DNA of 62,859 nt, counting the filler. It is 7 parts of 7 records of this genome, joined end to end, with 100 filler letters (N's around TTAATTAATTAA, not from the genome) between each part and the next. Parts side by side here need not be neighbours in the genome. Positions count along the whole stretch, not along the records: positions 48,118 to 56,228 come from SRR31156797_4728; 6 more parts are not named here. The stretch is one strand, 5' to 3'. The stretch's first letter is position 1. Each line of letters begins with the position of its first letter. A program made the position numbers and the translations under genes. Below the pieces are notes generated by a model. It made no database searches. It was not told where the DNA came from and was given only the letters and a program-made list of their open reading frames with translations. Below are positions 4,717-56,328 of this stretch, piece after piece.

Positions 4717-4725
4717 CGCGTCTTT

Positions 4726-7665: not shown

Positions 7666-7735
7666 TAGGTTGGGTTAGCGTAGTATAACCCAACAATTTC
7701 AAGATGTTGGGTTATGCTACGCTAACCCAACCTAC
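7666..7735. repeat. REP/REPIN-like nested inverted repeat
   Basis: TAGGTTGGGTTAGCGTAGTATAACCCAACA (7666-7695) and a near-perfect reverse complement at 7705-7734 ending CTAC; each arm is itself a hairpin. Confidence 0.7.
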
Positions 7736-9513: not shown

Positions 9514-9540
9514 AAAAGAAATTTCAGTTCAAACGTAAGC

Positions 9541-9560
9541 GGGCGGGATTATACCCGCCC
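9541..9560. terminator. Hairpin between convergent genes
   Basis: GGGCGGG-attata-CCCGCCC followed by a T-rich tract. Confidence 0.6.
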
Positions 9561-9599
9561 ATTTTATTTTAACAAGTTTTACTCGAGATTAAATTCGGC

Positions 9600-9908
9600 T
9601 TAAATGGAAGCTATTTCCTTGAAAGTTGTAATTTCCGGCTCTCCATCCAGGTAGCCGGCTACTTTCCCGAAGAATTCCTGAAAATAAGGGGTGCTGCTAT
9701 GGAATTTTAGAGCTTCCCCGTCTTTGTACCTTTCCATGAAGACTAATACGTTCGGATTGTTTTTATCAATATTCAAGGTGTATAGTAAACAACCTTCTTC
9801 TTCGGCCACTTTGGCGACCAGCCCTTTTACCACTTCCACTGCTTCATCAACCATATCCGCCTTGATCGGAAGCTTGGCGATTACACTAATCATTTCGATC
9901 CTCCTCAT
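9600..9908 (-). CDS. Antibiotic biosynthesis monooxygenase (ABM)/YgiN-family putative quinol monooxygenase
   Basis: MISVIAKL...EEGCLLY...FMERYKD.EAL.FH..TPYF. The true start is probably the internal ATG ending at 9893. Confidence 0.8.
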   Translation of the reverse strand: MRRIEMISVIAKLPIKADMVDEAVEVVKGLVAKVAEEEGCLLYTLNIDKNNPNVLVFMERYKDGEALKFHSSTPYFQEFFGKVAGYLDGEPEITTFKEIASI

Positions 9909-10033
9909 TTAATGATTTATCGTCCACATGCTGAATTGCTGTTATAATGACCACTATCCAGGAATTATCCCTCCGTGTCAATAAATACGGGACGGATTAA
10001 ACCTAATTAGTGTCTGTCCAGAATGAGGAGTTT

Positions 10034-11383: not shown

Positions 11384-11850
11384 ATGTTATTGAAGCAATT
11401 AATCTTACTAAGAACTCTCCAAATAAAGTTGCTAAAGAATTACAAAGTTTTATTTACGGATTTAAAGATAGAAGAGATGTAAGTTATTTTGATTTATTTT
11501 TATTTTATCCATTTTTTAGTTACAAGCCTTCACACGATTTTTTTGATAAACAAATGAGATTATCAAATAAAGATAAAGTAAATTTTTTCATAGATAATTC
11601 AAGTTCTCAACCTGAAATATTTGCAAATATTAAATTCGATTTTTATGAAACAATTTATTTAACAAAAGAAGCAATAATTTATGGAATCAATAATAAATAT
11701 TTTTTAATAGATGATAATTTTATTATTAAACTTAAAACAGAACATTTATTAAATAAAAATAGAGTCAGTGAAAATATTGGAAAGTTTTTATCGACTCAAA
11801 ATACTGCATATTTATATAATTATTTTAAGGTGGACATAGATGCAATTTAA
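11380..11850 (+). CDS. lmuC: Lamassu/ABC-3C middle component (LmuC-like)
   Basis: 156 aa, overlapping both the effector (ATGA) and the ATPase; LFLFYPF and TKEAIIYG motifs. Confidence 0.7.
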   Translation: MNVIEAINLTKNSPNKVAKELQSFIYGFKDRRDVSYFDLFLFYPFFSYKPSHDFFDKQMRLSNKDKVNFFIDNSSSQPEIFANIKFDFYETIYLTKEAIIYGINNKYFLIDDNFIIKLKTEHLLNKNRVSENIGKFLSTQNTAYLYNYFKVDIDAI

Positions 11851-13795: not shown

Positions 13796-13798
13796 GTA

Positions 13799-35641: not shown

Positions 35642-36914
35642 GGGAAGACTCTTTCGCGGTAGCCTCCGGAGACATACCGAAGATTCTCTGAAGTTCGGCT
35701 ACTTCGCTTTTTTCAGCATCTGAAAGCCCGGTACCGAATTTCTTCTTTACATTCAGTTCCGCCAATCTTTCCTGCTTCTTCTTTCCCTCCTCGGAACGCT
35801 CTATCTCATCGCCGAATGCACCTGAAGAAAGAGCTTCCAGAATATTGCCGTAAACAAGCCGCTCATAGGCGGGACCGGTAAGCTGCTCGCCCCGGCTCCT
35901 GCCGTCCTTCCCGGAAAGAAGCCATACAGAGCCTTTTGCGGCAGATTGACAGATCAAGGGACTATGGGTGGTCACGATAAACTGGATTTCCGGAAAGTGA
36001 CGGGTCATCCATTCTCCGATCCGCCGCTGCCAGGAAGGATGCAGATGGACATCGATCTCGTCGATAAACACTACGCCGGGAAAGATGACGGTCGTTCCGT
36101 CATCATTGAAAACACTATCTGTTTTATAACAAGAAGCCATTTGCCTGATGAGTTCCAAGGTCAGGCTGAGTATGGAACGATAACCGTCGCTCAAAGCTTC
36201 AATGCTAACGGTGTTATTGAAGCCGTCTATAAAGCGTATGCCATCGGAGCTCACAGAATCGAAATGTACATCATCCGGCAAAAAGTTATCCTGATTCAGA
36301 AAATTCTTGATCTTCCCTAAGAGTCCCGACTCCATCGATTCCTTGTTTTCCAACTGCTTGAATCTCAATTTCTTCAGCCATTCCAAAGTCTCTGTCAAAG
36401 CAACGTCTTCTCCAAATACAGAGAGGTGCCTGGCTAACAAAGGAGAAGAATAAAAAAGTTTCTGATACTCATTGTTACCTCCCGAGAACCTTCTGAAAGG
36501 ACCGTAGGAAACGGAAAACCAGCCTTTCTTCCCGCTCCATACGTGTCTTGAAGGTTTAGGCGTTGAGACACAATTTAACCTCCCATTCTCATTGATGGAT
36601 AATGAGTAATTAAGCTTCTCACTCTGCTTCCCTTTTTCCGCCCATTGATCCAGCATCTTATCCTGGATCAATTCGATCCGAACAAATCCTTTTTCCTTAT
36701 CCTCATGCACCCAATCGGAAAATACTTCCCTCGATTTCAATGCCTCGTCGGGACCAATCAGGGCGGCCGCAGCCGCTTTAATAAATGTGGATTTTCCGGA
36801 ACCGTTATTTCCCAGGATCACATGCCAACCGGCTGCCTGCTCAGCATCCTTCAGCTTGAATGAGAATTTTCCAAATGATTTTATATTTTCCAATTCAATC
36901 TTTTTTAAGTACAT
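35634..36914 (-). CDS. ptuA: AAA/ABC-like ATPase, PtuA-like (Septu)
   Basis: GNNGSGKST, YGPFR, LSDGY, IDEIDVHLHPSWQ, QFIVTTHSPL. Confidence 0.8.
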   Translation of the reverse strand: MYLKKIELENIKSFGKFSFKLKDAEQAAGWHVILGNNGSGKSTFIKAAAAALIGPDEALKSREVFSDWVHEDKEKGFVRIELIQDKMLDQWAEKGKQSEKLNYSLSINENGRLNCVSTPKPSRHVWSGKKGWFSVSYGPFRRFSGGNNEYQKLFYSSPLLARHLSVFGEDVALTETLEWLKKLRFKQLENKESMESGLLGKIKNFLNQDNFLPDDVHFDSVSSDGIRFIDGFNNTVSIEALSDGYRSILSLTLELIRQMASCYKTDSVFNDDGTTVIFPGVVFIDEIDVHLHPSWQRRIGEWMTRHFPEIQFIVTTHSPLICQSAAKGSVWLLSGKDGRSRGEQLTGPAYERLVYGNILEALSSGAFGDEIERSEEGKKKQERLAELNVKKKFGTGLSDAEKSEVAELQRIFGMSPEATAKESSHA

Positions 36915-36971
36915 GAGCGATCTCTCCCCTAAGATAATCTGTCTAATTTTCCATGGATCATTAACAATCCT

Positions 36972-39827
36972 TTACGGCCTGCTGATCCCATTAATAAAGG
37001 TCTCCACAAAGCCCATGATCCTGCCGGTAATCCGTTCGGCGGAGCTTTTCCGTTCTTTGAGCCCGGGCCGCTGATTCATAATGCCGATGATTTCATCCCG
37101 GAGAGGTTCCTTCTCAGTATAAAGGAAGCTATTAATCACTTCCTGAAGCTTTTCAACGTCCAGATTCTCTTCTCGGCTCATGTTTTCCAGAGCCTGCAGC
37201 TTTTCAACACTCCAAAAGTCCGCAAAGGCATCGGGAATGTCTTCGGAGTCTTCGATTTTCGGAAGGTTCTCATTGATGAATTTCTCAATCAGCTCCCGCT
37301 TGCTGCGCATGCGCACGTCCCCGGCCATCATATCCATAATGGATTTCTTCTGTTTCTCCCGTTCTTCCTCTTCTGCGTCTTTCAATTTAGCCAGAAGCTT
37401 GAGTATATAAGCCACATTGATCTCGTCCCGGTGAATCAGCTCCAGTTCGAAGTCGATGTCGTTCAGGATAGAGACCTTCTCCTTCATATTCTGAGTTCTG
37501 GTTTTGTCGTAGAGGTCCAGGTATTTGCTTTTGTAATCTTCGAAGAGCTGAGCGTTCATGGAAAGGTCGTCATGGGTGAACTGGGTAAAGGTCTTCAATA
37601 CATTCATCAGACGCATCAGATCCCGGAAGGCCTTGATGAACTCCGACTCCTGCTCTTCGTCCTGCAGATTGTTGACGCTGTCCACGGTGGGCGTTATCTT
37701 CAGCATCTCTATAAAGGCCCCGTTGAACTTAGCCACATAATCCTCGTAAGGCTCCATGATGATTTCATCTTTGGCATGGATGTTGGAGAACAGGGCGATG
37801 GCTTCGTCGGTGGCCTTCTTCAGATTACGGAAACAGACGATATTCCCCTGGGACTTCAGCTCGTCCAGAATCCGGTTGGACCGGGAATAGGCCTGGAGCA
37901 ATCCGTGATAGCGAAGGTTCTTATCCACATAGAGGGTATTGAGTCTCTTGCTGTCAAATCCGGTGAGAAACATATTCACCACCAAAAGGATATCGACCTG
38001 CCGGTTTTTCACCTTTTTGGAGATGTCGTTGTAGTAGTTGTAAAAGCTCTTGCTGTCCCTGGTGGTGAAATTGCTGCCAAACTCCCTGTTGTAATGGCCG
38101 ATGAACTCTTCCAGAGAATCCCGGGAGTGTTGGCTGCTGTACCGAGGCTCCGGATCGGCGGCGTTCAGAAACTCATCATCTACCAGGCCGCCCAGGGCGT
38201 CCTTATCTTCTTCGTTGGCGGCATAGGAAAAGATGGTAGCGACTTTCAGATTATGAAGGCCCTCTTCCCGCTTCTCATGGAAGAGACGGTAGTAGTCCAC
38301 AAGGGTATCCACACCGGATACGGCGAAGATGGAGGTAAACTCCCGATTATGCGTTTTCCTGCCGTGGTTCGCGATGACGTAATCGACGATATTCTCCAGC
38401 CTCTGGGGAGCGTTCATCACCTCGGCTTTATCGATGTCTTCCACCTCAATATCCAGGATATGATCTTTCTTGCGAAAGGTACGGATATACTCGATGGAGA
38501 ACTTCAGAACGTTCTCGTCCCGAATGGCGTCGGTAATAACATATTTATGAAGCAGGTCTCCGAAGAGCATGGCCGTCGTGCGCTTCCCGTATTCGTTCGT
38601 ACCCGCGTTGTCTTCGAAGATAGGCGTCCCGGTGAAACCGAACATCTGGCATCTGGTAAAGAAGTTCTTGATGGTCTCGTGGGTCTTCCCGAACTGGGAA
38701 CGGTGGCATTCGTCAAAGATAAAGACCAGCCGCTTATCTTTGGAGGCTTCCATACGGTTCAGGTAACGGGGATTATTAGCCGCATTGTTCAGCTTCTGGA
38801 TGGTGGTGACGATGAGCTTCTCATCCCCGGCGAACTGCTCCACCAGGGCCCTGGTATTATCCGTCCCGTCTACGCTGCCCTTGCTGAAACTGTTGAACTC
38901 TTTGGTGGTCTGATAGTCCAGATCCTTCCGGTCCACCACGAAGACGACCTTATGAACCTTGGGATAGTTGGTCAGGATCTGGGCGGCCTTGAAGGAGGTC
39001 AATGTCTTGCCCGATCCGGTGGTATGCCAGATATAGCCGAACTTCCGGGTGGTCTGCACCCGTTCGATCAAGGCTTCCACCGCATAGAACTGATAGGGAC
39101 GCAGCACCATCAGGGCCTTTTGAGTTTCATTAAGAACCACGTACTTGGTGATCATCTTGGCGATATGGCAGGGCTCCAGAAAGATGTCGGCGAACCTGGA
39201 CAATTGCGTTATAAGCTTGTTGTCCACATCGCTCCAGTAAAAAGTCTGCTTGAAAGATCGCTTATTCACAGCACCGTTAGCGTAGTATTTGGTATTCACT
39301 CCATTGGAGATGACGAATATCTGGATAAATTGAAATAGACCGTAGCCCGCCCCGTAGGAGTGGCGTTCGTAGCGGTTGGTCTGGTTAAAGGCTTCCTTCA
39401 ATTCCAGGCCCCGCCGCTTCAGTTCGATCTGTACCAAAGGCAAACCGTTAATAAGAATGGTCACGTCATAACGATTTTCATAAGTCCCCACCATGGTCAC
39501 CTGCCGGGTCACCTGAAAACGGTTCTGGCACCAGTGGATCTGATTGATCAGCTCCACGGTCTTACTCTCCCCCGCTTCATTTACATAGGGAACCCTATCC
39601 CGTAGGCTCCTGGCCCGTTCGAAGATATTCCCTTTGTTGATGTAATTCAGGATCTGCTTAAAATCCCCGTCAGCCAAAGAACACTTGTTATGAATTTCCA
39701 ACTGCTTCTTTAGATTGGCCAACAAGCCCACTTCATCCCGGATATTGACCTGTTCATAGCCAAGCTGGACGAGCTGGTCGATGAGGTTATTCTCTAAAGC
39801 TTGTTCGGGCTGGGTAGCGGCAGACAT
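36972..39827 (-). CDS. hsdR: Type I restriction enzyme R subunit
   Basis: RYDVTILINGLPLVQIELK, HTTGSGKT, DECHRSQ, FTGTP, MFLTGFD. Confidence 0.95.
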   Translation of the reverse strand: MSAATQPEQALENNLIDQLVQLGYEQVNIRDEVGLLANLKKQLEIHNKCSLADGDFKQILNYINKGNIFERARSLRDRVPYVNEAGESKTVELINQIHWCQNRFQVTRQVTMVGTYENRYDVTILINGLPLVQIELKRRGLELKEAFNQTNRYERHSYGAGYGLFQFIQIFVISNGVNTKYYANGAVNKRSFKQTFYWSDVDNKLITQLSRFADIFLEPCHIAKMITKYVVLNETQKALMVLRPYQFYAVEALIERVQTTRKFGYIWHTTGSGKTLTSFKAAQILTNYPKVHKVVFVVDRKDLDYQTTKEFNSFSKGSVDGTDNTRALVEQFAGDEKLIVTTIQKLNNAANNPRYLNRMEASKDKRLVFIFDECHRSQFGKTHETIKNFFTRCQMFGFTGTPIFEDNAGTNEYGKRTTAMLFGDLLHKYVITDAIRDENVLKFSIEYIRTFRKKDHILDIEVEDIDKAEVMNAPQRLENIVDYVIANHGRKTHNREFTSIFAVSGVDTLVDYYRLFHEKREEGLHNLKVATIFSYAANEEDKDALGGLVDDEFLNAADPEPRYSSQHSRDSLEEFIGHYNREFGSNFTTRDSKSFYNYYNDISKKVKNRQVDILLVVNMFLTGFDSKRLNTLYVDKNLRYHGLLQAYSRSNRILDELKSQGNIVCFRNLKKATDEAIALFSNIHAKDEIIMEPYEDYVAKFNGAFIEMLKITPTVDSVNNLQDEEQESEFIKAFRDLMRLMNVLKTFTQFTHDDLSMNAQLFEDYKSKYLDLYDKTRTQNMKEKVSILNDIDFELELIHRDEINVAYILKLLAKLKDAEEEEREKQKKSIMDMMAGDVRMRSKRELIEKFINENLPKIEDSEDIPDAFADFWSVEKLQALENMSREENLDVEKLQEVINSFLYTEKEPLRDEIIGIMNQRPGLKERKSSAERITGRIMGFVETFINGISRP

Positions 39828-41056
39828 TACACAAACATCCTTTGAAGCAGCCCTTTCTTCCAGGTCTGAGAAGTTTCAATCTGAGCAGAAACCTTATCAA
39901 TAGATTTGTTGATAGAGGATAGGAAGTCGGCGATTTTTTGTTGTTCGGGGAGAGAAGGGAGAGAGAGATGTAGCTCTTTTAGATGAATACCATATAAGTG
40001 GATAACTGAGATCCCTTGAGCAAACCTTGCAATATCCATCTTTTTTGCATTGTTTAAATAATAAGAGAGGAATATCCCATTTTCATTTGACCTAATTATA
40101 TTGATGTCTCCACCCAATGCTACACCGGATTCCATAACACAACTTGCAGTCGCTATATCAAATGATGTTTCCCCTGAGGACGGAATAATCACATCATTCA
40201 TTTCGCTAAATACTAAATCAGAGACATCTATATCAGTCCTAGAGATTATACATTTGATAATTTCTTGATAACGAGTATATAATTCACCATATCTGATGCA
40301 TTTGTATTCCCCATTCTCACATATATCATTTTTTGAGATGCCCTTACCCTTTCTGATAGTAGAAATGTCTCCTAAAACTTTTTCTTCCCAATCAGGAAAG
40401 TCATTTCCCTGATCATCCTTGAAACGGATATCCTGAGAGAATATTTTTTGCATAATACCCTTTTTATATTGCTCCAGGGCTTCTTTCTTTTTTTGGAGTA
40501 GGGTGATGCGTCTGTCTACTGTGGTAAGAAAGGAGGCTATGCGGCTTTGTTCCTGGAGAGAAGGAAAAGACAGTTTCATTTTTCGAATATCTTTAAGATT
40601 GATACGAGAAAAGGTAGATCCACCGGATTGTCTTTTAATCAATGCTTGTGCTTTTTCTGTTTGTAAATTGAAATAAATGAAATGAGTATTCTTATATCTA
40701 CTTTTTATTAGAACAGTGTCTTGACCAAGGACAAACGGCTGATTCGAATCAACAATACTTGCAATACCTACAGATTGATTCCTACTCATTACGATATCTC
40801 CAATTTCAACCGTACAATGATCCATCAAAGATTCATAATCTTCGAAAGTAACAAATTTGGAAGTATCACAGAATTTCAATACCCCCCAGTTTATTAAACC
40901 TGGAGAAACAACAGGAATCCCATCTTCAATATAGAGGGGGGTCCTATGCTTACAGTCAATGATTTGGGCTGAATCCTGAAGTGCTTTTACATCCCATAGT
41001 TTTTGAAATTCTTCAAACCTCAACTCAGGATTTTTCTTTTGCTTCTGTTCACTCAT
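39827..41056 (-). CDS. hsdS: Type I RM specificity subunit
   Basis: PELRF, two TRDs with conserved spacers PSLQEQSRIASFL and PSLPEQQKIADFL, ending KKGLLQRMF. Confidence 0.95.
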   Translation of the reverse strand: MSEQKQKKNPELRFEEFQKLWDVKALQDSAQIIDCKHRTPLYIEDGIPVVSPGLINWGVLKFCDTSKFVTFEDYESLMDHCTVEIGDIVMSRNQSVGIASIVDSNQPFVLGQDTVLIKSRYKNTHFIYFNLQTEKAQALIKRQSGGSTFSRINLKDIRKMKLSFPSLQEQSRIASFLTTVDRRITLLQKKKEALEQYKKGIMQKIFSQDIRFKDDQGNDFPDWEEKVLGDISTIRKGKGISKNDICENGEYKCIRYGELYTRYQEIIKCIISRTDIDVSDLVFSEMNDVIIPSSGETSFDIATASCVMESGVALGGDINIIRSNENGIFLSYYLNNAKKMDIARFAQGISVIHLYGIHLKELHLSLPSLPEQQKIADFLSSINKSIDKVSAQIETSQTWKKGLLQRMFV

Positions 41057-42065
41057 CAGAACAACCTTGTATTAAAGCCATCTCCCGAGCCAACTCTTGC
41101 TGTAACTCCTCTTCTGAAGGAAGATAAAGCTTATACTTGGATGCAAATAGCTGCTTACTATCTGCCAGAATGGAGTATTTGACAACGGCTTCATTCTTAT
41201 CTGCACAAAGAACAAGACCGATGGTCGGATTGTCATCAGCTTCCTTAACTTTATCTTCATACAAACGGATATAGGTATCCATCTGCCCTATATCCTGATG
41301 GGTCAACTTTCCTCTTTTCAGATCGATCAGAATAAAGCATTTCAGCTTGTAATTATAGAAGACAAGGTCTATATAAAAATGTTCTCCGTCCAAATCGATG
41401 TGCTTTTGTCGGGCAACGAAGGAAAAACCGGCTCCAAGCTCTAGCAAAAACGCTTGCAGATTATCAATAAGAGCAGATTCGAGATCTTCTTCCGTATAAT
41501 CAGGACGATTCCGTAATTCAAGGAATTCCAGTACATAGGGATCTTTCAGAACATCACCAGGGGTCAAGACTGTCGTATTTTCTTTTGCTTCTTCGGCTAC
41601 AGGTTGTTTGTTCGAACTGGCAAGCAGACGCTGGTAGTAAAAACTATTGATCTGTCTCTCTAAAGCACGAGTGGACCAGTTTTCTTTAGTCGCTTCTTTT
41701 AAATACCACTGTCTGGCTTTTTCATCTTCAACTTTAAGGAGATGACGATAATGGGTCCAACTCAATTCGGCACTCACTGCGTGCCGAAATGGAAAATATT
41801 GGAAAAACTGCCGGAAATTCCTTAAATTTCGTTCCGTAAATCCTTTCCCAAATTGAGAAGTCAAGCGCTCAGCCAAATCCTTTAGGACCGCTTTACCAAA
41901 TTCAGCTCTTCTCTGTCCCTGCTGTTCATCCTCAACAATAAGCCTACCGATATTCCAATAACATTGAACCATTGCCGTATTAACGGACTGACGAACATTT
42001 TTCCGAGCATCTTCTATAACGGAGGTTATGGAATCGAATAATCTGGTATTGTCAACACTCTGCAT
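41049..42065 (-). CDS. YhcG/DUF1016 PD-(D/E)xK nuclease-domain protein
   Basis: YWNIGRLI, LSWTHY, KDPYVLEFL, FLLELGAGFSFVARQ, IDLVFYN...IDLK, IGQM. Confidence 0.92.
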   Translation of the reverse strand: MQSVDNTRLFDSITSVIEDARKNVRQSVNTAMVQCYWNIGRLIVEDEQQGQRRAEFGKAVLKDLAERLTSQFGKGFTERNLRNFRQFFQYFPFRHAVSAELSWTHYRHLLKVEDEKARQWYLKEATKENWSTRALERQINSFYYQRLLASSNKQPVAEEAKENTTVLTPGDVLKDPYVLEFLELRNRPDYTEEDLESALIDNLQAFLLELGAGFSFVARQKHIDLDGEHFYIDLVFYNYKLKCFILIDLKRGKLTHQDIGQMDTYIRLYEDKVKEADDNPTIGLVLCADKNEAVVKYSILADSKQLFASKYKLYLPSEEELQQELAREMALIQGCSDE

Positions 42066-42071
42066 AACGTC

Positions 42072-43649
42072 CTACTCTCCAAAAGGAACGGCGATTCCCA
42101 ATTCCTTACAGTAACCGGCAATTTCCTGGTTCACTTCCAAGAGCTCTTTATCCAGATCAACGATGCTGGCAGCCACTGCATCAAGGTCTACGGGCTCTTC
42201 TTCTTCAAAGGTATCCACATAACGGGGTATGTTCAGATTATAATCGTTTTCCACAATTTCATCTAAACTAGCAATGTAGGAATATTTATCCTTCCCTAAC
42301 CTATTACGATAGGTCTTTACGATTTCCTCCACATCACCGTCCCGAAGAGCGTTCTGATTCCCCTCTTTAATGAAATGATCATCCCCGGAAGCATCGATGA
42401 ATACTATATTGTCATCCGCCTCCCGGCATTTTTTAAATACCAGTATACATGTGGGGATCGATGTTCCATAAAAGATATTGGCTGGCAGACCAATCACCGC
42501 ATCCAGATAATTCAGTTCTTTTATCAGATATTTCCGAATAATGCCTTCTGCTGCTCCCCGGAAAAGAACTCCGTGAGGAAGAACTGTAGCCATGATGCCG
42601 TTATCCGTCAGTTGGTGGATCATATGGAGAACGAAAGCATAATCGGCTTTAGTCTTTGGAGCCAGCTTGCCATATTGGCTAAACCTTTCATCAGTGCTGT
42701 ATAAGGGATTGGCATCCCCTTTCCAATGGGCAGAGAAGGGAGGATTTGCCACCACCGCTTCAAAACGTTCTTCGATGTGCTGTGGATTCTCCAAAGTGTC
42801 TTCATGTCGGATATCGAATTGTCTATAGTGAACTCCGTGGAGTATCATATTCATACGAGCAAGGTTGTAGGTGGTCCTATTCATTTCCTGCCCGAAAAAC
42901 TCGCTAACGTCTGATACTTCTTTGGCTACTCGTAGCAATAATGAGCCGGATCCGCATGTGGGATCATATACTGATTTCAGTCTGGATTTCCCGGTGGTCA
43001 CGACTTTCGCCAGAATCTTGGATACTTGCTGGGGCGTATAGAATTCGCCAGCAGATTTACCAGCGCCAGCAGCAAATTTACTGATCAAATACTCATAGGC
43101 ATCACCAAGCAAGTCAGATTTGGTATCTTCCAACTGGAAATCGATTTTATCCAGATGATTCAGGATCTTAACAATTACTTCATTACGGGCACTGACGGTC
43201 CGTCCTATCTTTGTTGAATTAAGATCCAGATCTTCAAACAGAGCGTTGAAATCTTCTTCTGACTCCGTCCCCATAGTGCTTTGCTCGATATGATTCATTA
43301 CCGCTTGAAGATCTTCAATGATGTAATTGCTTTCGTGTTCGGTATCGGCACTGCCTTTACGTGCCAGTTTAGAGAAAAGTTCTTTAGGAAGGAGGAAATA
43401 GCCAAGAGTTTGTAGGGACTCTTCTTTGATAGCATCCAGGATTTCAAGATCCGTTATGTTTATATAATCAGTTACCTCTTCTCCTTCGAGAAGGTGATTA
43501 GCATAGAGATACTGTTTTTCGCTTAAGTACTTATAAAAAATGAAGCCCAAAATGTAATCACGGTAATCATCTGCGCTTATTTTTCCTCTGAGGAGATTGG
43601 CTATTCCCCAGAGTTGAGCTTCTAATATTTTTTTTTGGTCTTCTGACAT
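42072..43649 (-). CDS. hsdM: Type I RM methyltransferase (m6A)
   Basis: GDAYEYLI, GEFYTP, DPTCGSGSLL, NPPF, YNLNIPRYVD. Confidence 0.96.
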   Translation of the reverse strand: MSEDQKKILEAQLWGIANLLRGKISADDYRDYILGFIFYKYLSEKQYLYANHLLEGEEVTDYINITDLEILDAIKEESLQTLGYFLLPKELFSKLARKGSADTEHESNYIIEDLQAVMNHIEQSTMGTESEEDFNALFEDLDLNSTKIGRTVSARNEVIVKILNHLDKIDFQLEDTKSDLLGDAYEYLISKFAAGAGKSAGEFYTPQQVSKILAKVVTTGKSRLKSVYDPTCGSGSLLLRVAKEVSDVSEFFGQEMNRTTYNLARMNMILHGVHYRQFDIRHEDTLENPQHIEERFEAVVANPPFSAHWKGDANPLYSTDERFSQYGKLAPKTKADYAFVLHMIHQLTDNGIMATVLPHGVLFRGAAEGIIRKYLIKELNYLDAVIGLPANIFYGTSIPTCILVFKKCREADDNIVFIDASGDDHFIKEGNQNALRDGDVEEIVKTYRNRLGKDKYSYIASLDEIVENDYNLNIPRYVDTFEEEEPVDLDAVAASIVDLDKELLEVNQEIAGYCKELGIAVPFGE

Positions 43650-45973: not shown

Positions 45974-46679
45974 TGAAACTCATCCTTTTATATATTTCAT
46001 TCATAATATAAATACCAAAGATTATATAATATAGTCCTTTTATCAAAACATAAAAAACAACACCTAAAAAACAATTTGGGATTATATTCAAATCAAAATC
46101 AAAATTGAAAATAAATGTTGATGATATCAGCATCTGATTAACAATCAACAAATTACTTTGATCAATACCTTTAATATCATACATTGCCATCCAATCAGTT
46201 GGTGCTGGGAGGAATATTATTGAAAGGAAAGAGTATAGAACTATAATTGAAACCAACATTTTATTGAGAGAGAGCGTAGGAAATAAAAGAATAGATTTTA
46301 ATAGATAACCTTTTTTTTTAAGTGTCAAATATTCTTCATATTTAGATTTAATTATCTTTCTATTTAAATCATATACAAGATCATTATTTGAGTATTCAAC
46401 TGCTTTTCTCTTTATGAAGTATAAAAGTTTTGTTTTTTGTTCTATTGGGAAGTGATCTATAATTCTATATATTTTTTCAAGATTGATTATATCATACCCA
46501 TAATTATTGTTGTCCATTGAGTCGAATTGTTCCAATATCATTGTTTTACAAAGTAAATAGCAATTATCAGAAAGAGAGTTATTTGTAATTTTATAATCGA
46601 GCAATGCATATATTAGATGAGATTTCTCCAATCCATTTGCATTTGAAATCTTATCTTTTATTTCTTGATCGAAATCCAT
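45966..46679 (-). CDS. Hypothetical membrane protein (helical N-terminus + TM-loop-TM C-terminus)
   Basis: Hydrophobic segments near aa 140-157 and 203-225; overlaps the kinase start. Confidence 0.6.
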   Translation of the reverse strand: MDFDQEIKDKISNANGLEKSHLIYALLDYKITNNSLSDNCYLLCKTMILEQFDSMDNNNYGYDIINLEKIYRIIDHFPIEQKTKLLYFIKRKAVEYSNNDLVYDLNRKIIKSKYEEYLTLKKKGYLLKSILLFPTLSLNKMLVSIIVLYSFLSIIFLPAPTDWMAMYDIKGIDQSNLLIVNQMLISSTFIFNFDFDLNIIPNCFLGVVFYVLIKGLYYIIFGIYIMNEIYKRMSFND

Positions 46680-46816
46680 TTTTCCCCTTTTAGATTTAAC
46701 TAATTCCTTACAGATTACCTCAATATTAATCGCCTAATATGTACCTGCTAGAATAGACCAACCAATGATTACACCGCCTACCCACTATATAATTACCTAA
46801 TTTGCAAACCTCTCCC

Positions 46817-46944
46817 GCGTCAGGGATAGGAGCGTTTCCTTCTCCCCGGCCAGGGCGGAGCGATGAGAGTAGCCCGAACAGGCCGGGGGACCAGAAGGAA
46901 GTAGCGGATAGCCCGGCCCTGCAGCTTGCTGCGGGGAGACGCCC
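46817..46944 (-). ncRNA. Flavo-1-like structured RNA / repeat element
   Basis: Minus strand GGGCGT-(hairpin)-CCGGGCTATCCGCTAC-TTCCTTCT...AGAAGGAA-ACGCTCCTATCCCTGACGC resembles, from memory, the Flavo-1 motif layout known from Bacteroidota and Spirochaetota. Confidence 0.6.
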
Positions 46945-47041
46945 ATATCTACTATACGCCCTGTGACCAATAAATTAAAGTCATTTACTTTAAACAGCTG
47001 TATGTCAGTGTATTAAGATTGCCTTGATAGTTGCAGAAGCC

Positions 47042-47335
47042 TCAGTAACGCCTGTTGCGGTACAGATAGAAGCCGAAGCCCAGGGCGTAGAACAAGTAGG
47101 GTAGCAGCTGGAGGATGCCGAACCAGAGGGGAACGGGACGGATGCCGTCCAGAACCAGGGGGAGGATGCCTACGGTGGCGAGGATTTCGATCATCAGGGA
47201 GACAAAGGAGATAAGTGTGCCTGCGATTATAAGGACCCAGGACTCCTCACGGGTGCGGGACCAGACCCATATGGCCAGGAAGGAGGCGAGGAAGCTCACG
47301 GCGGCGCGGCCGATCAGGAGTGCGGGTTCGGACAT
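47042..47335 (-). CDS. Small membrane protein (3 TM), hypothetical
   Basis: Hydrophobic; FLAIWVWSRTRE..W; GGAG RBS. Confidence 0.65.
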   Translation of the reverse strand: MSEPALLIGRAAVSFLASFLAIWVWSRTREESWVLIIAGTLISFVSLMIEILATVGILPLVLDGIRPVPLWFGILQLLPYLFYALGFGFYLYRNRRY

Positions 47336-47341
47336 GGGGCC

Positions 47342-48016
47342 TTACTCTCCATTGAAGTGGCGGCCTGTCAGTTTGAGGTCCGACGGGCTTAAGACACGGG
47401 GCAGGATACTGGGCAGCTCCGGCTCCGGTGACAACAGTATACCATGGCTCAGGGCCTTGCGGAACTCTTCTTCATAGGCTTCAGGGGCTCCTTTGTATTG
47501 AAGGTAGGGGCCGTCCTGCTCCCAGAGGGGAGAGGCGTAGTCGGGATAGCTAATATTGGGAGACTTCTCCAGGGCGCCGATCAGGCTCCAGAGAGTCCGG
47601 CTTAAGGCCGCGGCCAGTACGGGGGAAGGAAGGTCCCCGGGGTGCAGTTCCTTTTTGGACAGGAGTATGATTCCTGCTTTCAGTCCCGGCAGGGGGAGAA
47701 GCGGACGCACTGCTGCATTTAGGTCCTTTGACGTCGGCCAGGGTGTACCGGGGCGCCAGAGAACGGCGTCCACGGGGGAATGGCCTGTGTAGTAGGCGGC
47801 CTCCGTAAACTCGGCGGCACCAAAGACCTTGGGCAGGGCCCGGGCGGCCTTGAGCAGCTTCCCCTCTTCCGGTGAGGGATAGGGGGCGTAAACGCCCCGG
47901 CTCAGGGTGTTCTTGAGCTGCAGGGAGACACCCTCGGGACGGTGCCCCAGCCAGGCCCGGCCGCCGTCCTGAAAGAGGTCCAGGATTCTGTTTCCCGAGG
48001 AGTCGTAGAGATAGTA
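47342..48016 (-). CDS. Divergent PLP-dependent aminotransferase class-III-like protein (5' truncated)
   Basis: The frame of ORF 47342..47773 stays open to the contig edge: YYLYDSSGNRILDLFQDGGRAWLGHRP. Confidence 0.55.
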   Translation of the reverse strand, partial: YYLYDSSGNRILDLFQDGGRAWLGHRPEGVSLQLKNTLSRGVYAPYPSPEEGKLLKAARALPKVFGAAEFTEAAYYTGHSPVDAVLWRPGTPWPTSKDLNAAVRPLLPLPGLKAGIILLSKKELHPGDLPSPVLAAALSRTLWSLIGALEKSPNISYPDYASPLWEQDGPYLQYKGAPEAYEEEFRKALSHGILLSPEPELPSILPRVLSPSDLKLTGRHFNGE

Positions 48017-51493: not shown

Positions 51494-51656
51494 CTTTCCT
51501 CCTAGATTATTTTTATAAGTCAGAATGATTCAGTAAGATTTTTTAAAGTCAAAAGAAGCAATTTGACTTTGATACGAAAATCTTTTAGTCTGACTTAGGC
51601 TTAAAAATAATTATTTTAATCTTTCTTTTCACTAGACTATTAATAAAAAAATAATT

Positions 51657-51842
51657 TTAATTGACATCATCTTCGTGCACTACTTTTATACCATCTAAGT
51701 GACCTCTTACCTGAGCTCTAAACTGTTCAAGATATAGTTGTCTGTACTTTTGTCTTTCTTCAGCTTCTTCAGCTGTTAAATCTCTTTGTTTTGCAAGACC
51801 GGCATAGTAATTTACCATCTTGATTATTTCTTTCATTTCCAT
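51657..51842 (-). CDS. DUF896 (YnzC-like) small protein
   Basis: LT.EE..ERQ..RQ.YL..FR. Confidence 0.8.
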   Translation of the reverse strand: MEMKEIIKMVNYYAGLAKQRDLTAEEAEERQKYRQLYLEQFRAQVRGHLDGIKVVHEDDVN

Positions 51843-51937
51843 TATATACTACTCCTTAATATTTATAAAACTTATATTATTTTTAGTAAATTAGTGTGTA
51901 CAAAATATACTTACATTTTTAGTAAAAATACCTATCT

Positions 51938-51967
51938 ATTATACTCGCTGAAACCTTTATTTGTCAA
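51938..51967 (-). promoter_or_regulatory. Sigma70 promoter for DUF896-asnS
   Basis: TTGACA-18 nt-TATAAT. Confidence 0.65.
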
Positions 51968-52288
51968 GGACAATCCATGACGATATTAATATACTGTGTT
52001 GAAAAATATAAGATAGTTAAAACGTTTAGTTTAGAATGTAAAAAAATGCTCTGTGAGTAAAAAAAATGTAAAAGGTCAATGTGATCAATTGATTCATAAA
52101 ACATATTTTATTTAGAAATGAATTATAAATAGATCGTTATGTGAACTTAAAAAATGATTAAAAAGAGAAACGAACATTATAATATGAAAGATATTATAAT
52201 GTAAAGATGTAATAAGTCATTGACCATATAATTGGAATATGATATTAATTAGTATAGGGGAGAGTTATCTGTGAAGGGAGAATGAAAG

Positions 52289-52531
52289 ATGGATAATGAA
52301 GTTGTAAAAAAGAATTTCAAAAATAGGATAGAAATGTTAGCAAAAAAAATTGATATTGGTAAATTAATTGATGAGAAAATAATTGAAAAAGTTGGAGAAG
52401 ATGAGTATAAAATTTTAGACTTTAACAGATTGCCTAAAAGGATGATTAAAAAAATAAAAAAAGTTAAAGTTGATGACGAGGTAATTGTGGTATTTTCTAA
52501 ACCTGAAAATATTTATAAAATAATTGAGTAA
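52289..52531 (+). CDS. Hypothetical protein
   Basis: 80-aa ORF with GGGAG RBS, followed by a terminator. Confidence 0.6.
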   Translation: MDNEVVKKNFKNRIEMLAKKIDIGKLIDEKIIEKVGEDEYKILDFNRLPKRMIKKIKKVKVDDEVIVVFSKPENIYKIIE

Positions 52532-52549
52532 CCCCCCTTTGGTATCTAT

Positions 52550-52585
52550 AAAAAATTAGAGCAGATTATCTGCTCTAATTTTTTT
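52550..52585. terminator. Bidirectional intrinsic terminator
   Basis: AAAAAATTAGAGCAGA-tta-TCTGCTCTAATTTTTT. Confidence 0.75.
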
Positions 52586-52775
52586 TATGTATTGGAAAAG
52601 TGTAAATTTATGAATTTCTAAAAGTTTCATTACTTTATTTTGTAGAGATAATTTTCGTTTTCATTTTATTTTAATTTGATAGTGAAGCGCTTTTTTTGCA
52701 TAAAATTTAATTATTTTGCTCATAAGGTAATCCTTTGAAAACCAGTGCTTTGCATGTTGAAATTCTACAAAAAAT

Positions 52776-52926
52776 AAAAAAAGCTGACTAAATGTCAGCG
52801 TAATTTTCGAGGCCGGTAACAATGGCGGGGTCATGCTTGTTACCGGCAATTATAAAAGCACTGTAAAACTAGTCACAAGGCGGGGTAATATGTGACTTTA
52901 TTTGTGTTTTACTGTATGAAGTCTTC
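52776..52926 (-). ncRNA. Candidate small RNA with two C-rich-loop hairpins and an intrinsic terminator
   Basis: Promoter at 52933-52961; hairpins at 52863-52912 and 52812-52847, both with an ACCCCGCC loop; terminator GCTGAC-atttA-GTCAGC-U7. Confidence 0.6.
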
Positions 52927-52932
52927 ATTAGA

Positions 52933-52961
52933 AGTATAGCATAAAATATATCAGATGTAAA
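52933..52961 (-). promoter_or_regulatory. Extended -10 sigma70 promoter for the candidate sRNA
   Basis: TTTACA-17 nt-TATACT with TG at the extended -10 position (TGcTATACT). Confidence 0.65.
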
Positions 52962-52982
52962 CCCTATTTACAAAAATAAATA

Positions 52983-54281
52983 TTAAATATTTGTCTCCAA
53001 TATTTCTACCAATTGTCTGCTAAGTTCGGCTGGAGTGAGTATTTTGTCATTGTTTTCCATGAAGATATAGTGTTGCAACATCTTTATTTCATATAAACTG
53101 ATTTTTGTATTTAAGAGCTGCTGACAATAAGCATCGCAAAGGAAAGTATCTTCAATGTAAACCTTAATTGATTGGATGTTATTCGGATTGTATTTTATCT
53201 CAACCTCTTCTCCTATTCGGTCCTTTAGGAGATCATGTTTATAAACCAGATTCTGGTATTTTACTCCTACAGGTTGAATGATTCTTTTACTTCTTACATG
53301 CATCATTAATGCGTTTAAAATCTCTTTTTTAGGAATTATTTCCAGTCTTTCCAGGTTGTTTTCCCAGAACTCTTTTCTAAAGAAATTATGTACATCATTT
53401 ATATATTGTTTGATAGCATTTCGAAAATCAAAGAAGTTTAATTTTGATGGTTCATTTGCTTCGATGTTTTTTAATACGATAGTATTTAAGTTTTCGAAGA
53501 ATGAATCAAGTTTGTAGTTATTAATTCCCGAGAAGAAGTTAATCTCCATATTTAGATTATTTTTTATATCCTCAAGTCGCTTTTTATCCTGTATTTTCAT
53601 ATTATTGACTACGAATTCAACAGGTTTACCATGAACTAAGCATGAATTTTCTTCATCGCTTAGTATACCGGCTCGTAATAAAAATAGAATCTCGTCAATT
53701 TCCGGTATATTGAATGAGATATCAAATGATGCAATTCCTCCGGAGTAATTATCATATACAATATTAAGATATGGTTTCTTTTTACCATCACTTGCCCAGT
53801 CATATATTTCTACATCTAATTGTTCTGATCTAAATTCAAATATTTGATTTGATACTTGTGCCTTGAATAGATCAATTGTAGGATACGTCTTGATAAACGG
53901 ATCTAAATTTTTAATAATCCTATAAACAGTATCGTAACTAATAGTTCGACCTAAGTTTGAATTATCATTATCCAGATACTCTTGGGTTTGTTTATGAGCA
54001 TCCAAAATTTTAATATCCGGATTACCAAAATATAACTCTTTAATATATTCAATTGTTTTTTTATCAGCACTTCTATATGTAGACTTATCTCTTCGAGTGT
54101 TTTTTGCTAAACCTTCTATTCCTTTTTTCTTGTATGTTGAGACCCACCTTTTTAGTGTACTGTAAGGAACACCACTCTCTTCGGCAACAGCTACAAGTTT
54201 CATTTTTTTCTCTATAAAAGGTTTAATGATACTGAATTTCTCTTGTTCGCTAAAAGGATCATTCTTTTTCAAAATTTTCAC
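52983..54281 (-). CDS. Mu/TnsB-like transposase-fold protein (HTH + integrase-like core + Mu_C) with DDE triad substituted
   Basis: HTH VPYSTLKRWVSTYKKKGIEGL...R.DK; ISYDTVYRII; KPYLNIVYDNYSG; Mu C-terminal RIIQPVGVKYQNLVY...IGEEVEIKYNPNNI..IKVY. Confidence 0.75.
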   Translation of the reverse strand: MKILKKNDPFSEQEKFSIIKPFIEKKMKLVAVAEESGVPYSTLKRWVSTYKKKGIEGLAKNTRRDKSTYRSADKKTIEYIKELYFGNPDIKILDAHKQTQEYLDNDNSNLGRTISYDTVYRIIKNLDPFIKTYPTIDLFKAQVSNQIFEFRSEQLDVEIYDWASDGKKKPYLNIVYDNYSGGIASFDISFNIPEIDEILFLLRAGILSDEENSCLVHGKPVEFVVNNMKIQDKKRLEDIKNNLNMEINFFSGINNYKLDSFFENLNTIVLKNIEANEPSKLNFFDFRNAIKQYINDVHNFFRKEFWENNLERLEIIPKKEILNALMMHVRSKRIIQPVGVKYQNLVYKHDLLKDRIGEEVEIKYNPNNIQSIKVYIEDTFLCDAYCQQLLNTKISLYEIKMLQHYIFMENNDKILTPAELSRQLVEILETNI

Positions 54282-54299
54282 CCCAATCTATACCCTATA

Positions 54300-54328
54300 A
54301 TTTTATCTCAAAATTCACTATCTGTCAA
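54300..54328 (-). promoter_or_regulatory. Sigma70 promoter of the TnsB-like gene
   Basis: TTGACA-17 nt-TAAAAT, ending 18 nt upstream of the GTG start. Confidence 0.6.
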
Positions 54329-54527
54329 TGTTTTCTAAGCAGAAGTGTAGGACAGAAAGTTAAAAAACAGAAAAAAAAGTTTAATTATAATACAAAACTA
54401 TGTTTTTGAGCCATAATACTGTTGCAAAAATAATGTATGGTTTATGCGTTTTTCTTCAGGTTTTAGTACGAAAAGATAGGAACAAAAAAGTTTTTTGCAA
54501 AAAAAGCTCATTTAATGACAAAAATTC

Positions 54528-54556
54528 TTGACAAATAGATAAAAAAAGAGTACACT
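54528..54556 (+). promoter_or_regulatory. Sigma70 promoter upstream of ptsH
   Basis: TTGACA-17 nt-TACACT. Confidence 0.6.
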
Positions 54557-54735
54557 TCTTGTAAGTGAAACAGAACGGCGTTAAGAGTTCTAAAAAAGAA
54601 TGATGAGTTCTAAAATGGACAAGGTGATGGGACAGCATAAAAAACAATATTATAACTGAATTTGATTGCAAAATATTGAATTGTAAATTATGCATGACAT
54701 TATTAATTTAAAAAAAATTATGGAGGTAACAAATT

Positions 54736-54996
54736 ATGGTATCAAAATCTGTAGTAATCGAAAACGAAACTGGTATGCACACAAGACCTGCAAACGAATT
54801 TGTAAAGGAAGTTAAAAAATACGAATCAGTTGTAACTCTTGAAGCAAATGGAAAAACAGCTAAAGCAAAATCATTACTTAAAATCCTTTCTTTAGGAATC
54901 AAATGTGGAACAGAAGTAATCATTAATGCTGAAGGTGCAGACGAAACAGCAGCAGCAGAAGAATTAACAGCATTCTTAAAAGACTTAAGAGACTAA
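54736..54996 (+). CDS. ptsH: Phosphocarrier protein HPr
   Basis: GMHTRPA, AKSLLKILSLG, EGADE. Confidence 0.95.
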   Translation: MVSKSVVIENETGMHTRPANEFVKEVKKYESVVTLEANGKTAKAKSLLKILSLGIKCGTEVIINAEGADETAAAEELTAFLKDLRD

Positions 54997-55019
54997 TTAT
55001 TGAACTAAAAATTTAATAA

Positions 55020-55050
55020 AGCTCCCTTTAAATTTATTTAAAAGGGAGCT
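55020..55050 (+). terminator. Hairpin after ptsH
   Basis: AGCTCCCTTT...AAAGGGAGCT. Confidence 0.6.
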
Positions 55051-55281
55051 TGGAAATTTTTTGTGAACTTGTAAACACAAGTTCAGGCTAAAAGAGAAAG
55101 CTCATTAAAAGAGAAAAGTGTATATATTTAATAATTTGTAGAGTGAATGTCTGAGGTTATAGACTCATTATGGTTTAGGATTAGACAATTTCAGTTAATA
55201 CTTTCATTATTGTAATTATGTCGGATATAAACTTCAGTAATTATTTTAACTTTATTAAAAAGCTTTTGTAATTCAATATTA

Positions 55282-56228
55282 TTGATAAAGGAGTGTTGGA
55301 GAAATATGACAAAATTAAAAGGTATAGATGCATCACCTGGTGTTGCAATTGGAACGGTTCTTTTATATGAAGAAAAAGATTTAGTACTAGCAGAAAAAAG
55401 TGAAGTTGGAACAGAGGCAGAAGTTAAAAGACTTATTGAAGGTCAAGCTAAAGCTAAAGTTCAATTAGAAGCAATCAAAGATAAGGCATTTGAAAAAATG
55501 GGTGCAGATAAAGCTGCGATCTTTGACGGGCACATCACTTTATTAGAAGATGAAGAGCTTCTTGATGAAGTTAAAGAAAAAATAGAAGATGATAACATGA
55601 CAGCAGAGTTTGCCTTAAACGAAGGAATTGAAGAATACTGTGAAATGATTAAAAATCTTGATGACGAATATTTAAGAGAAAGAGCAGCCGATTTAGCTGA
55701 TATAGGTAAAAGATGGCTTAACAACATTTTGGGTGTAGAAGTAATGGATTTAGGAAATCTACCTGCGAACTCTGTAATCGTAGCTAAAGATTTAACTCCA
55801 TCTGATACAGCTCAAATGGATCTTGAAAATGTAGCTGGATTTATTACTGAGATCGGTGGAAAAACTGCTCACTCGGCAATCATGGCTAGAACTCTTGAAG
55901 TACCTGCTATCGTAGGAACTAAAGGAATCTTAGAAACTGTAAAAGGTGGAGAGAAGATTATCGTAGATGCTTTAACAGGAGATATTTTAATCAACCCTGA
56001 GGAAACTGAATATCCTACTTACCAAGCTAAAAGAGAAGGATACTTAGCTGCTAAAGAAGAACTTAAAAAATTAAAAGATGCTGTTGCTGAAACAATTGAC
56101 GGACATCAAGTAGCTATGTGGGCTAACATTGGAAGTCCAAAAGATCTTGTTGGAGTTGTTAAAAACGGAGCAGAAGGAATCGGTCTTTACAGAACTGAGT
56201 TCTTATTCATGAATAGTGATAAATTACC
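55282..56228 (+). CDS. ptsI: PTS enzyme I (3' truncated)
   Basis: GIDASPGVAIG, YLRERAADL, DLTPSDTA, GGKTAHSAIMAR, GIGLYRTEFLFM; the true start is probably ATG at 55306. Confidence 0.96.
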
Positions 56229-56328
56229 NNNNNNNNNNNNNNNNNNNNNNNNNNNNNNNNNNNNNNNNNNNNTTAATTAATTAANNNNNNNNNNNNNNNN
56301 NNNNNNNNNNNNNNNNNNNNNNNNNNNN
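56229..56328. other. Artificial contig linker
   Basis: N-run with TTAATTAATTAA. Confidence 0.98.

Follow-up and report, generated by a model that had tools for sequence, protein, structure and literature searches.

The 62,859-nt stretch of DNA analysed here (the window, 62.9 kb), which joins seven records of one genome end to end, carries on the minus strand at positions 52769-52961 a compact element composed of a promoter motif, two hairpins with identical C-rich loops and an intrinsic terminator, located directly downstream of a gene encoding an apparently catalytically dead homologue of the transposase TnsB (the TnsB-like gene). The existence and conservation of this element are established, and a function is very probable. 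The reading that we favour, with a probability of about one half, is that it encodes a functional, clade-restricted small RNA (sRNA) that is transcribed from an internal promoter of the extended -10 type, ends at the same terminator as the upstream gene and acts through its twin loops.

A reading of the locus made from sequence alone (the sequence-only reading) had listed a promoter-like site, two hairpins and a terminator, and every one of these items is present on the minus strand. In the direction of transcription, the element opens with a -35-like hexamer, TTTACA (52956-52961), for which no change is listed in the relatives that cover it, and which is separated by a 17-nt spacer from an extended -10, TGcTATACT (52933-52941), with the TG present; the promoter-like site scores 10/12 in a consensus scan. 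The predicted 5' leader (52913-52928), with a start placed at about 52925-52928 from the distance to the -10, contains a weak 5-bp hairpin in the minimum free energy (MFE) fold. Hairpin 1 (52863-52912) is two-tiered according to RNAfold, with an outer stem (52912-52906 GTAAAAC / 52869-52863 GTTTTAC), an internal loop (52905-52898), an inner stem (52897-52891 AGTCACA / 52877-52871 TGTGACT) and a 13-nt apical loop (52890-52878) that includes the 8-mer ACCCCGCC at 52886-52879. Sequence and fold indicate that an A/U-rich, single-stranded linker of 15 nt (52848-52862) leads from there to hairpin 2 (52812-52847), in which an 11-bp stem (GCCGGTAACAA 52847-52837 / TTGTTACCGGC 52822-52812) closes a 14-nt apical loop (52836-52823) bearing, as had been claimed, the same 8-mer at 52831-52824. 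After a spacer of 12 nt follows the intrinsic terminator (52769-52799), consisting of a 6-bp GC-rich stem (GCTGAC 52799-52794 / GTCAGC 52788-52783) with a 5-nt loop and, directly after the stem, a T-run, TTTTTTTATTTTTT, that reaches about 52769.

All three hairpins are recovered by RNAfold with an MFE of -43.6 kcal/mol, compared to -22.5 ± 3.4 kcal/mol for 200 dinucleotide shuffles (z -6.16), none of which was as stable (0/200). The 8-mer ACCCCGCC occurs three times in the window against 0.28 occurrences expected, a count reached in 1 of 100 shuffles. Its predicted unpaired probability is at least 0.98 at 8/8 positions in loop 1 and at least 0.89 at 6/8 positions in loop 2, which in the predicted structure leaves the C-rich motif exposed in an unpaired loop, as in the class of C-rich-loop base-pairing sRNAs.

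The two hairpins can also be aligned to each other (GUCACA--UAUUACCCCGCC-UUGUGAC against GUAACAAGCAUGACCCCGCCAUUGUUAC). They had been described as having stems of different sequence, which is true of the outer stems, the only differing part of the two hairpins, but not of the inner 6 bp, which are paralogous (GUCACA/UGUGAC and GUAACA/UGUUAC) and stand one compensatory change apart, from C:G to A:U, with the helix kept. The repeated similarity reaches past the 8-mer into TTGT(G/T)AC. Because their inner stems are paralogous, the twin hairpins look like a diverged tandem duplication with a period of 55 nt, and the compensatory change between them is the sole covariation signal at hand.

Eleven sequencing runs were listed with part of 52500-53500, one of which contains the entire interval and is possibly the source, and contigs from four other runs (X2, X3, X4 and X5; contig depth 2-3) were aligned to 52300-53700 at a likeness of at least 80%. 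The element is covered by contigs in 4/4 of these runs, with 0-2.5% changes. X2 is identical to the window over 52867-53103. X3 presents 3 changes in 196 nt over 52768-52963, and 9/74 and 18/90 in pieces of the coding sequence; X4 presents 0/79 over 52769-52847, where hairpin 2 is identical, 6/159 over 52891-53049 and 39/233 in the coding sequence; and X5, an RNA library, presents 3/148 over 52847-52994, 8/151 over 52967-53117 and 23/143 plus 21/140 in the coding sequence. Divergence in the element and in the middle of the gene is hence 1.5% versus 16.5% for X3 (3/196 versus 27/164, Fisher p = 2.7e-7), 2.5% versus 16.7% for X4 (6/238 versus 39/233, p = 6.7e-8) and 2.0% versus 15.5% for X5 (3/148 versus 44/283, p = 5.4e-6). 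Since the last three runs can be told apart by positions 52931 and 52939 and by their coding sequences, the pattern is shared by at least three lineages in addition to that of the window. In at least three diverged relatives, constraint is much stronger on the element than on the coding sequence beside it, amounting to strong purifying conservation.

None of the changes listed falls in the stems, the loop 8-mers, TG-TATACT or the terminator. The sole listed change inside the predicted transcript, at 52904, lies in the internal loop of hairpin 1; the others are found between the -10 hexamer and the predicted start (52931), at the N of TGn in X4 and X5 with TG and hexamer intact (52939), one base past the TnsB-like stop codon (52982) and in the TnsB-like coding sequence (53016). 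Past 52768/52769, the X3 and X4 contigs contain 24 and 126 more letters with no fit to the window, and similarity therefore ends exactly at the end of the terminator T-run, 52768/52769. At the opposite side, the element is joined to the 3' end of the gene in 3/3 bridging contigs (X2 52867-53103, X4 52891-53049 and X5 52847-52994).

Both the minus-strand promoter motif and the predicted intrinsic terminator are present and kept in relatives. Within 51500-55300 we found 4 terminator-like sites, the element's included, against 0.9 ± 1.0 expected, and the one at 52799-52783 is the only such site found on the minus strand and the next after the TnsB-like stop codon. Read on the plus strand, its stem lacks a T-run, and the presence of the T-run on the minus strand only fixes the orientation of the unit. 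The element begins 22 nt past the TnsB-like stop codon (52983-52985); since no terminator lies between the two, it constitutes the 3' untranslated region (3' UTR) of the TnsB-like gene, and its location between the stop codon and the sole terminator of the upstream gene is the one that characterizes 3'-UTR-embedded sRNAs.

Under the proposed mechanism, a regulatory RNA module of about 155-160 nt would occupy the interval between the TnsB-like stop codon and the only terminator of the transcription unit. A separate small RNA would be produced from its own extended -10 promoter, 22 nt past the stop codon, and would end at the terminator that it has in common with the upstream mRNA, following the layout of sRNAs that are embedded in a 3' UTR and have a promoter inside it. 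Both apical loops would expose ACCCCGCC as redundant or cooperative seeds for G-rich stretches of target mRNAs (GGGGU to GGCGGGGU), which would typically lie in ribosome-binding regions, and the pairing would block translation or alter mRNA stability without an Hfq-type chaperone. Transcription from the internal promoter, the base-pairing mode and the identity of the targets are what we infer from the anatomy and conservation of the element. The sections of the literature that bear on this design describe C-rich loop seeds directed against G-rich Shine-Dalgarno (SD) sequences as common among sRNAs (PMC12205990), and sRNAs with 2-4 hairpins, each loop carrying one C-rich motif, as the cuckoo family (PMC4615179). 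Fusobacteria are reported, in the relevant part of PMC11039985, to have many sRNAs and no Hfq, ProQ or CsrA, which fits G-C-rich, chaperone-independent seeds.

Searches against Rfam returned no match at gathering score in the entire window and, in E-value mode over 52400-53300, 15 sub-threshold matches only, of which those overlapping the element were Arrc14 (19.8 bits versus 99) and MOSES4 (17.5 versus 54.8). The claim that the RNA is undescribed is thereby upheld in both search modes. A dispersed repeat had been named as an observation that would speak against it, and none was seen: the element occurs once only, with no second copy in the 62.9-kb window. The portions of the literature covered by our search yielded no description of the element or of a DDE-less TnsB homologue adjoining ptsHI.

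The closest parallel in layout is the cuckoo RNA family (RSs0680 / SmelC397-type, Alphaproteobacteria), which like the element presents adjacent hairpins with a common C-rich loop motif and which is described, in the relevant part of PMC4615179, as having 2-4 adjacent hairpins with differing stems, proposed to occlude ribosome-binding sites. With two hairpins of similar size plus a terminator, the element falls within this range. However, the cuckoo loop motif is the anti-SD sequence CCUCCUCCC in that account (PMC4615179), whereas ACCCCGCC is not complementary to GGAGG; the host context differs as well, the homologues of the neighbouring gene all being from Fusobacteriota, and the inner stems of the element are still recognisably paralogous, unlike those of cuckoo hairpins. 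Membership of the cuckoo family was rejected on the basis of loops without CCUCCUCCC, no Rfam match in the window and the Fusobacteriota context. The C-rich-seed sRNAs of the Firmicutes (RsaE/RoxS, RNAIII hairpins and RsaA) also carry a C-rich motif in apical loops, repeated within each RNA, and act on G-rich SD targets independently of Hfq, according to the passages of PMC12205990 and PMC4615179 that deal with them. They share no sequence or structure homology with the element, the motif of which is longer and contains CGCC, and the sole match to RsaE/RoxS (RF01820), at 52481-52582 on the plus strand, lies outside the element and scores 18 bits versus a gathering score of 79. A CsrB/RsmZ-type sponge was likewise discarded, as neither loop contains GGA and Fusobacteria are reported, in the part of PMC11039985 cited above, to be without CsrA.

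Two further classes resemble the element in position. The sRNAs of the DapZ / MicL type are Hfq-dependent enterobacterial RNAs embedded in 3' UTRs and endowed with an internal promoter; like the element, they lie between a stop codon and a common terminator, with promoter motifs at the gene end, whereas the host gene of the element is a domesticated transposase homologue and its transcript is a predicted one. IS110 bridge RNAs and the crRNAs of CRISPR-associated transposons are guide or bridge RNAs encoded beside transposase or recombinase genes, and the element similarly appears as a structured non-coding RNA with two loop regions beside a transposase-family gene. In this case, however, the neighbour is a DDE-less TnsB homologue and not an IS110 recombinase, no Cas, TnsC or TniQ gene is adjacent, the loops are identical apical loops and not programmable internal ones, and the TnsB-like family mostly lacks the RNA. 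The element is best placed in a family of its own, new and narrow, among the C-rich-loop base-pairing RNAs, akin to the cuckoo and RsaE-type RNAs but belonging to neither. If confirmed, it would add a new sRNA family to a little-studied branch of the Fusobacteriota, a phylum without Hfq, ProQ and CsrA, and provide a clean case of several hairpins with one identical C-rich loop that arose independently of the cuckoo and Firmicute C-rich sRNAs. It would also have been caught early, as a young tandem duplication between a stop codon and a terminator, which bears on the birth of 3'-UTR sRNAs. The place that it occupies, after a domesticated TnsB homologue with ptsHI synteny and no DDE triad, is unusual, and on present evidence the link is positional and not functional.

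Several results weigh against the sRNA reading, the first group of which concerns distribution. An initial scan of genome contigs found no homologues of the TnsB-like protein, and a profile scan found 13 loci (L001-L013), more distant than the four runs above. ACCCCGCC is present in 0/13 of them, and the seven more similar ones (36-46% identity) present the stop codon followed by a plain terminator only (7/7). Among 190 Fusobacteriota genomes, which are species representatives, the twin-motif pattern gave 16 matches in 7 genomes, none of them sRNA-like (they correspond to coding-like or GC-rich sequence, or to a 37-nt tandem repeat), and the single-hairpin pattern matched 0/190. A single-sequence covariance model (R1), run on 151 of the 190, gave six weak matches in 6 genomes (E 0.009-0.09 per genome), and the 4 alignments inspected consisted of the terminator or of one loop-less hairpin only. 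BLAST of the 196-nt element against five Fusobacteriota genomes returned AT-rich chance matches of 14-45 nt only (best E 0.018), viral contigs gave 0 matches to the element, and plasmids gave no match to 52700-54400. In metagenomes, a loose pattern listed at least 120 loci, none of those listed having the hairpin-1 core, a result that is uninformative on absence; among the 120 listed, 119 have a GC content of 0.42 or more, and all are unrelated to the element. The AsnRS encoded in the window is at most 79% identical to that of any of the 190 representatives, and the source organism therefore has no close relative among them. Given that the element was not found in these distant loci and genomes, it looks like a recent, clade-restricted innovation that was inserted into, or duplicated within, the interval separating the stop codon of an older gene from its terminator.

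Two checks named by the sequence-only reading thus have a divided outcome. The loop motif is conserved in the close relatives X2-X5 but not in the 13 more distant TnsB-like loci or the 190 Fusobacteriota genomes, and linkage to the TnsB-like gene, which holds in 3/3 bridging contigs of close relatives, fails in those same 13 loci. The overall proposal of an undescribed sRNA keeps the support of the absent Rfam match, the constraint and the exposed loops, with a loop motif retained only in a narrow clade standing on the other side.

A second group of adverse results concerns the conservation itself. Some changes could not be assigned to a position (one in X3, one in X5 and two in X4), and the stems are invariant across the orthologous copies seen, leaving no covariation among orthologues. 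The final ~130 nt of the TnsB-like gene diverge to an intermediate extent, about 4-5%, as would be expected either if the sequence upstream of the promoter were constrained or if a recombination tract had its edge there; the near-identity of the ~200-nt block could stem from such a tract instead of selection.

A third group concerns transcription. Promoter-like sites number 35 in 3.8 kb, against 23.1 ± 5.4 expected, and only 2 of the 35, the element's own among them, have the TG extension. The extended -10 promoter that had been proposed is present as a motif, with its TG and its preservation in relatives, but promoter-like sites are common here and a promoter match taken alone proves little. 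Three of the runs are RNA libraries (X5, X8 and X10), with 5-8% of the sampled words of 52500-53500. In X5, contigs of depth 2 cover both the TnsB-like coding sequence and the 5' part of the element, and this equal depth is not proof of a separate sRNA or even of transcription; stretches that the contigs leave uncovered carry no weight as evidence either.

The last adverse results relate to the candidate target. Homology with relatives, whose N-termini read MKKND..., makes TTG 54272 the likely start of the TnsB-like gene, and this codon is preceded by a G-rich ribosome-binding region, UGGGGUGA (54279-54286, minus strand), a weak candidate target of loop 1, with which 8 bp could form, 2 of them G.U. 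In a target scan limited to the 62.9-kb window, the loop and the TnsB-like start region gave an RNAduplex energy of -13.7 kcal/mol, which ranks 22nd of 291 start regions, and the optimum is a bulged duplex and not a clean 8 bp. Homologous starts from genomes without the element yield similar energies (L001, -11.7 and -13.4 kcal/mol; L003, -13.4 and -13.1 kcal/mol). The sequence GGCGGGGU has one occurrence elsewhere in the window, within GC-rich coding sequence, and is no convincing target. The pairing noted by the sequence-only reading between the loop and the gene start thus exists but does not stand out, its rank being low and homologues without the element doing equally well. On the other hand, GGGGU lies 3-12 nt before the start codon in only three open reading frame (ORF) contexts of the window, the TnsB-like gene included, and homologues without the element have GAGGUG or AAGGAG in place of GGGGUG.

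These last observations bear also on a possibility that we regard as tentative, with a real but modest chance of being correct: that the element acts in cis, as a 3'-UTR element of the TnsB-like mRNA whose C-rich loops pair with its own UGGGGUGA or protect the 3' end, resulting in autoregulated translation or stability. A model for such an arrangement is S. aureus icaR, the 3' UTR of which reportedly pairs with its 5' UTR. The mRNA necessarily extends through the element, as no terminator separates the latter from the stop codon (52983), and the linkage to the 3' end of the gene in all bridging contigs, the 8-bp pairing of loop 1 at -13.7 kcal/mol, the rarity of GGGGU near start codons and its replacement in homologues without the element are all in line with a cis role. 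The rank of the pairing, its bulged optimum and the similar energies of L001 and L003 speak against it, however, and the conserved extended -10 directly upstream suggests separate transcription.

The invariance of the whole RNA in relatives, stems included, exceeds the constraint that a simple seed needs, and identical loops on different outer stems suggest sequence-specific loop recognition. Both features would suit a protein-binding RNA, in which the loops are tandem sites for one protein and the RNA serves as decoy, sponge or scaffold, the partner being a KhpA/KhpB-type KH protein or the TnsB-like protein. We consider this unlikely. There are two sites only, and known sponges have many; the TnsB-like family mostly lacks the element; and we know of no protein with a motif preference for ACCCCGCC. 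The sections of PMC11039985 that deal with KhpA and KhpB give none either, although they report that both proteins co-purify with nearly all tested F. nucleatum sRNAs.

Similarly doubtful, and by a small step more so, is an action at the level of DNA, with the inverted repeats GTCACA-N13-TGTGAC and GTAACA-N14-TGTTAC, built around the same asymmetric core, functioning as operator-like sites for the TnsB-like protein or another regulator, or surviving as the relic of a transposon end. The TnsB-like protein keeps helix-turn-helix (HTH) domains and a Mu-transposase C-terminal domain, the repeats extend past the 8-mer into TTGT(G/T)AC, and conservation breaks off sharply at 52768, the outer boundary of the block. 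Yet this boundary coincides exactly with the terminator T-run, the strand asymmetry of which fits RNA, and the compensatory change between the hairpins preserves a helix that independent half-sites would not need. No matching repeat was found upstream of the gene or elsewhere in 51500-55300, and the gene is an old domesticated one, with ptsI/ptsH synteny in 6/13 homologue loci. Homologues were seen without the repeats, which makes a relic transposon end unlikely, and the transposon-end reading was rejected on the grounds of the ptsI/ptsH synteny and the lack of flanking repeats.

Less probable again is that the element has no function of its own and represents a recently duplicated hairpin insertion in a 3' UTR, homogenised among close relatives by a recombination or transfer tract. 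Its narrow distribution (0/190 genomes) would agree with this, as would the stepwise divergence, which climbs from about 1.5-2.5% in the element through about 4-5% over the final ~130 nt of the gene to about 16% deeper inside it and resembles the edge of a tract. Against it, the same pattern appears in three separate lineages (X3, X4 and X5), the block stops on its outer side exactly where the terminator ends, the stability of the fold (z -6.16) is exceptional and the few listed changes miss every functional sub-element.

The sequence-only reading had further proposed a partnership with the neighbouring protein. In its strongest form, the twin-loop RNA would be the dedicated partner of the dead TnsB-like protein, which would bind the ACCCCGCC loops or be directed or titrated by the RNA at GGCGGGGT-bearing nucleic acids; if true, RNA and protein would constitute a new regulatory pair of Tn7-type transposase descent, possibly controlling the adjacent ptsHI. 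We judge it highly improbable, and the general claim of a partnership is not borne out, because the protein family does not require the RNA: the 7/7 more similar loci mentioned above have the plain terminator only. Finally, a leaderless mRNA for a 19-aa peptide, suggested by an ATG (52928) at the predicted transcription start that opens a 19-codon frame to TAG 52870-52868, was rejected as next to impossible, because the C>T change at 52904 turns codon 9 from CAA into TAA in X3, X4 and X5; there is moreover no SD sequence, the frame crosses hairpin 1, and with no other plausible ORF of at least 20 aa coding is excluded, in agreement with the earlier claim that the element holds no credible ORF.

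The TnsB-like gene itself spans, on the minus strand, 52983 to 54272 (TTG, the likely start) or to 54281 (GTG, the longest frame), encoding 429-432 aa. Pfam identifies N-terminal HTH domains and Mu-transpos_C in its product and gives no match to the rve domain. With a profile built from 13 family members, the closest solved relative is ShCAST TnsB (7svw, E 7e-27). The ShCAST residues D205, D287 and E321, which we take to be its catalytic triad and whose numbers agree with the alignment, align to a variable column (R in the window protein), an invariant Asn and a variable column (D/K/S). As the triad positions are either non-conserved or Asn in this profile alignment, the DDE catalytic triad appears lost and the label of dead TnsB-like gene given by the sequence-only reading is justified. 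An identity as an active Tn7-like TnsB transposase was ruled out, there being no rve domain, no triad, no companion genes and no repeated end sites: no TnsA, TnsC or TniQ gene was found among its neighbours, no Cas gene is adjacent, and matching repeats are absent upstream of the gene and throughout 51500-55300.

All homologues recovered belong to Fusobacteriota (Hypnocyclicus, Ilyobacter, Psychrilyobacter, Cetobacterium and Fusobacteriaceae metagenome-assembled genomes), and the protein of one of them (P0002) is 74% identical to that of the window. The gene is adjoined by ptsI or ptsH in 6/13 homologue loci; in the window, HPr (54736-54996) and PtsI are encoded divergently upstream, and an 80-aa ORF, DUF896 and AsnRS lie on the other side. 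This synteny with ptsHI marks the TnsB-like gene, as judged from gene order, as an old chromosomal gene that has been domesticated, as opposed to a mobile element. More broadly, the ~430-aa TnsB homologues form a small Fusobacteriota-only family that has lost all three DDE positions and kept the HTH and Mu-transposase C-terminal domains; the family looks like a domesticated transposase and is possibly a regulator linked to the phosphotransferase system.

Two other features of the immediate neighbourhood were observed. The ptsI gene (55282-56280, plus strand) appears truncated, the window encoding only residues 5-309 of a 566-aa relative, with opposite-strand genes following from about 56273; a pseudogene or the breakpoint of a rearrangement is suggested. 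After the convergent 80-aa ORF (52289-52531, plus strand; no Pfam match), a 16-bp perfect palindrome between A-runs and T-runs at 52550-52584 appears to be a bidirectional terminator-like hairpin and the probable source of the weak sub-threshold Rfam matches in that interval.

Elsewhere in the window, blocks of 45-50% GC at 1-10000, 36000-40000 and 46000-48000 stand out from a chromosome of otherwise 22-32% GC. They encode two T2SSE-type ATPases, a GH114 protein, a radical-SAM/TPR protein and a type I restriction-modification system (hsdR, hsdS and hsdM, 36972-43649), and are probably horizontally acquired islands. A gene cluster of 22% GC at 10226-18637 (plus strand), with a DUF3732/AAA_23 protein (651 aa) and a 1612-aa protein bearing Sacsin-like and Schlafen AlbA_2 domains, resembles a defence-type island.

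The genome and metagenome scans brought up two further sequences. One Fusobacteriota genome contains, in tandem, a 37-nt direct repeat ending in CCCCGCC (L035/L041, G091:C2:62785-62865) that is unrelated to the element and may be a CRISPR-like or tandem array. The loose metagenome pattern recovered, in many contigs, one conserved, GC-rich (65-76% GC) sequence family of about 190 nt, AACCCCGCCTTGTGCTGGGG ... CCAACCCCGCCACTCG, unrelated to the window and represented among the loci listed by L060, L075, L081, L082, L087, L088, L092, L093, L104, L105, L111, L112, L119, L120, L123 and L127, among others.

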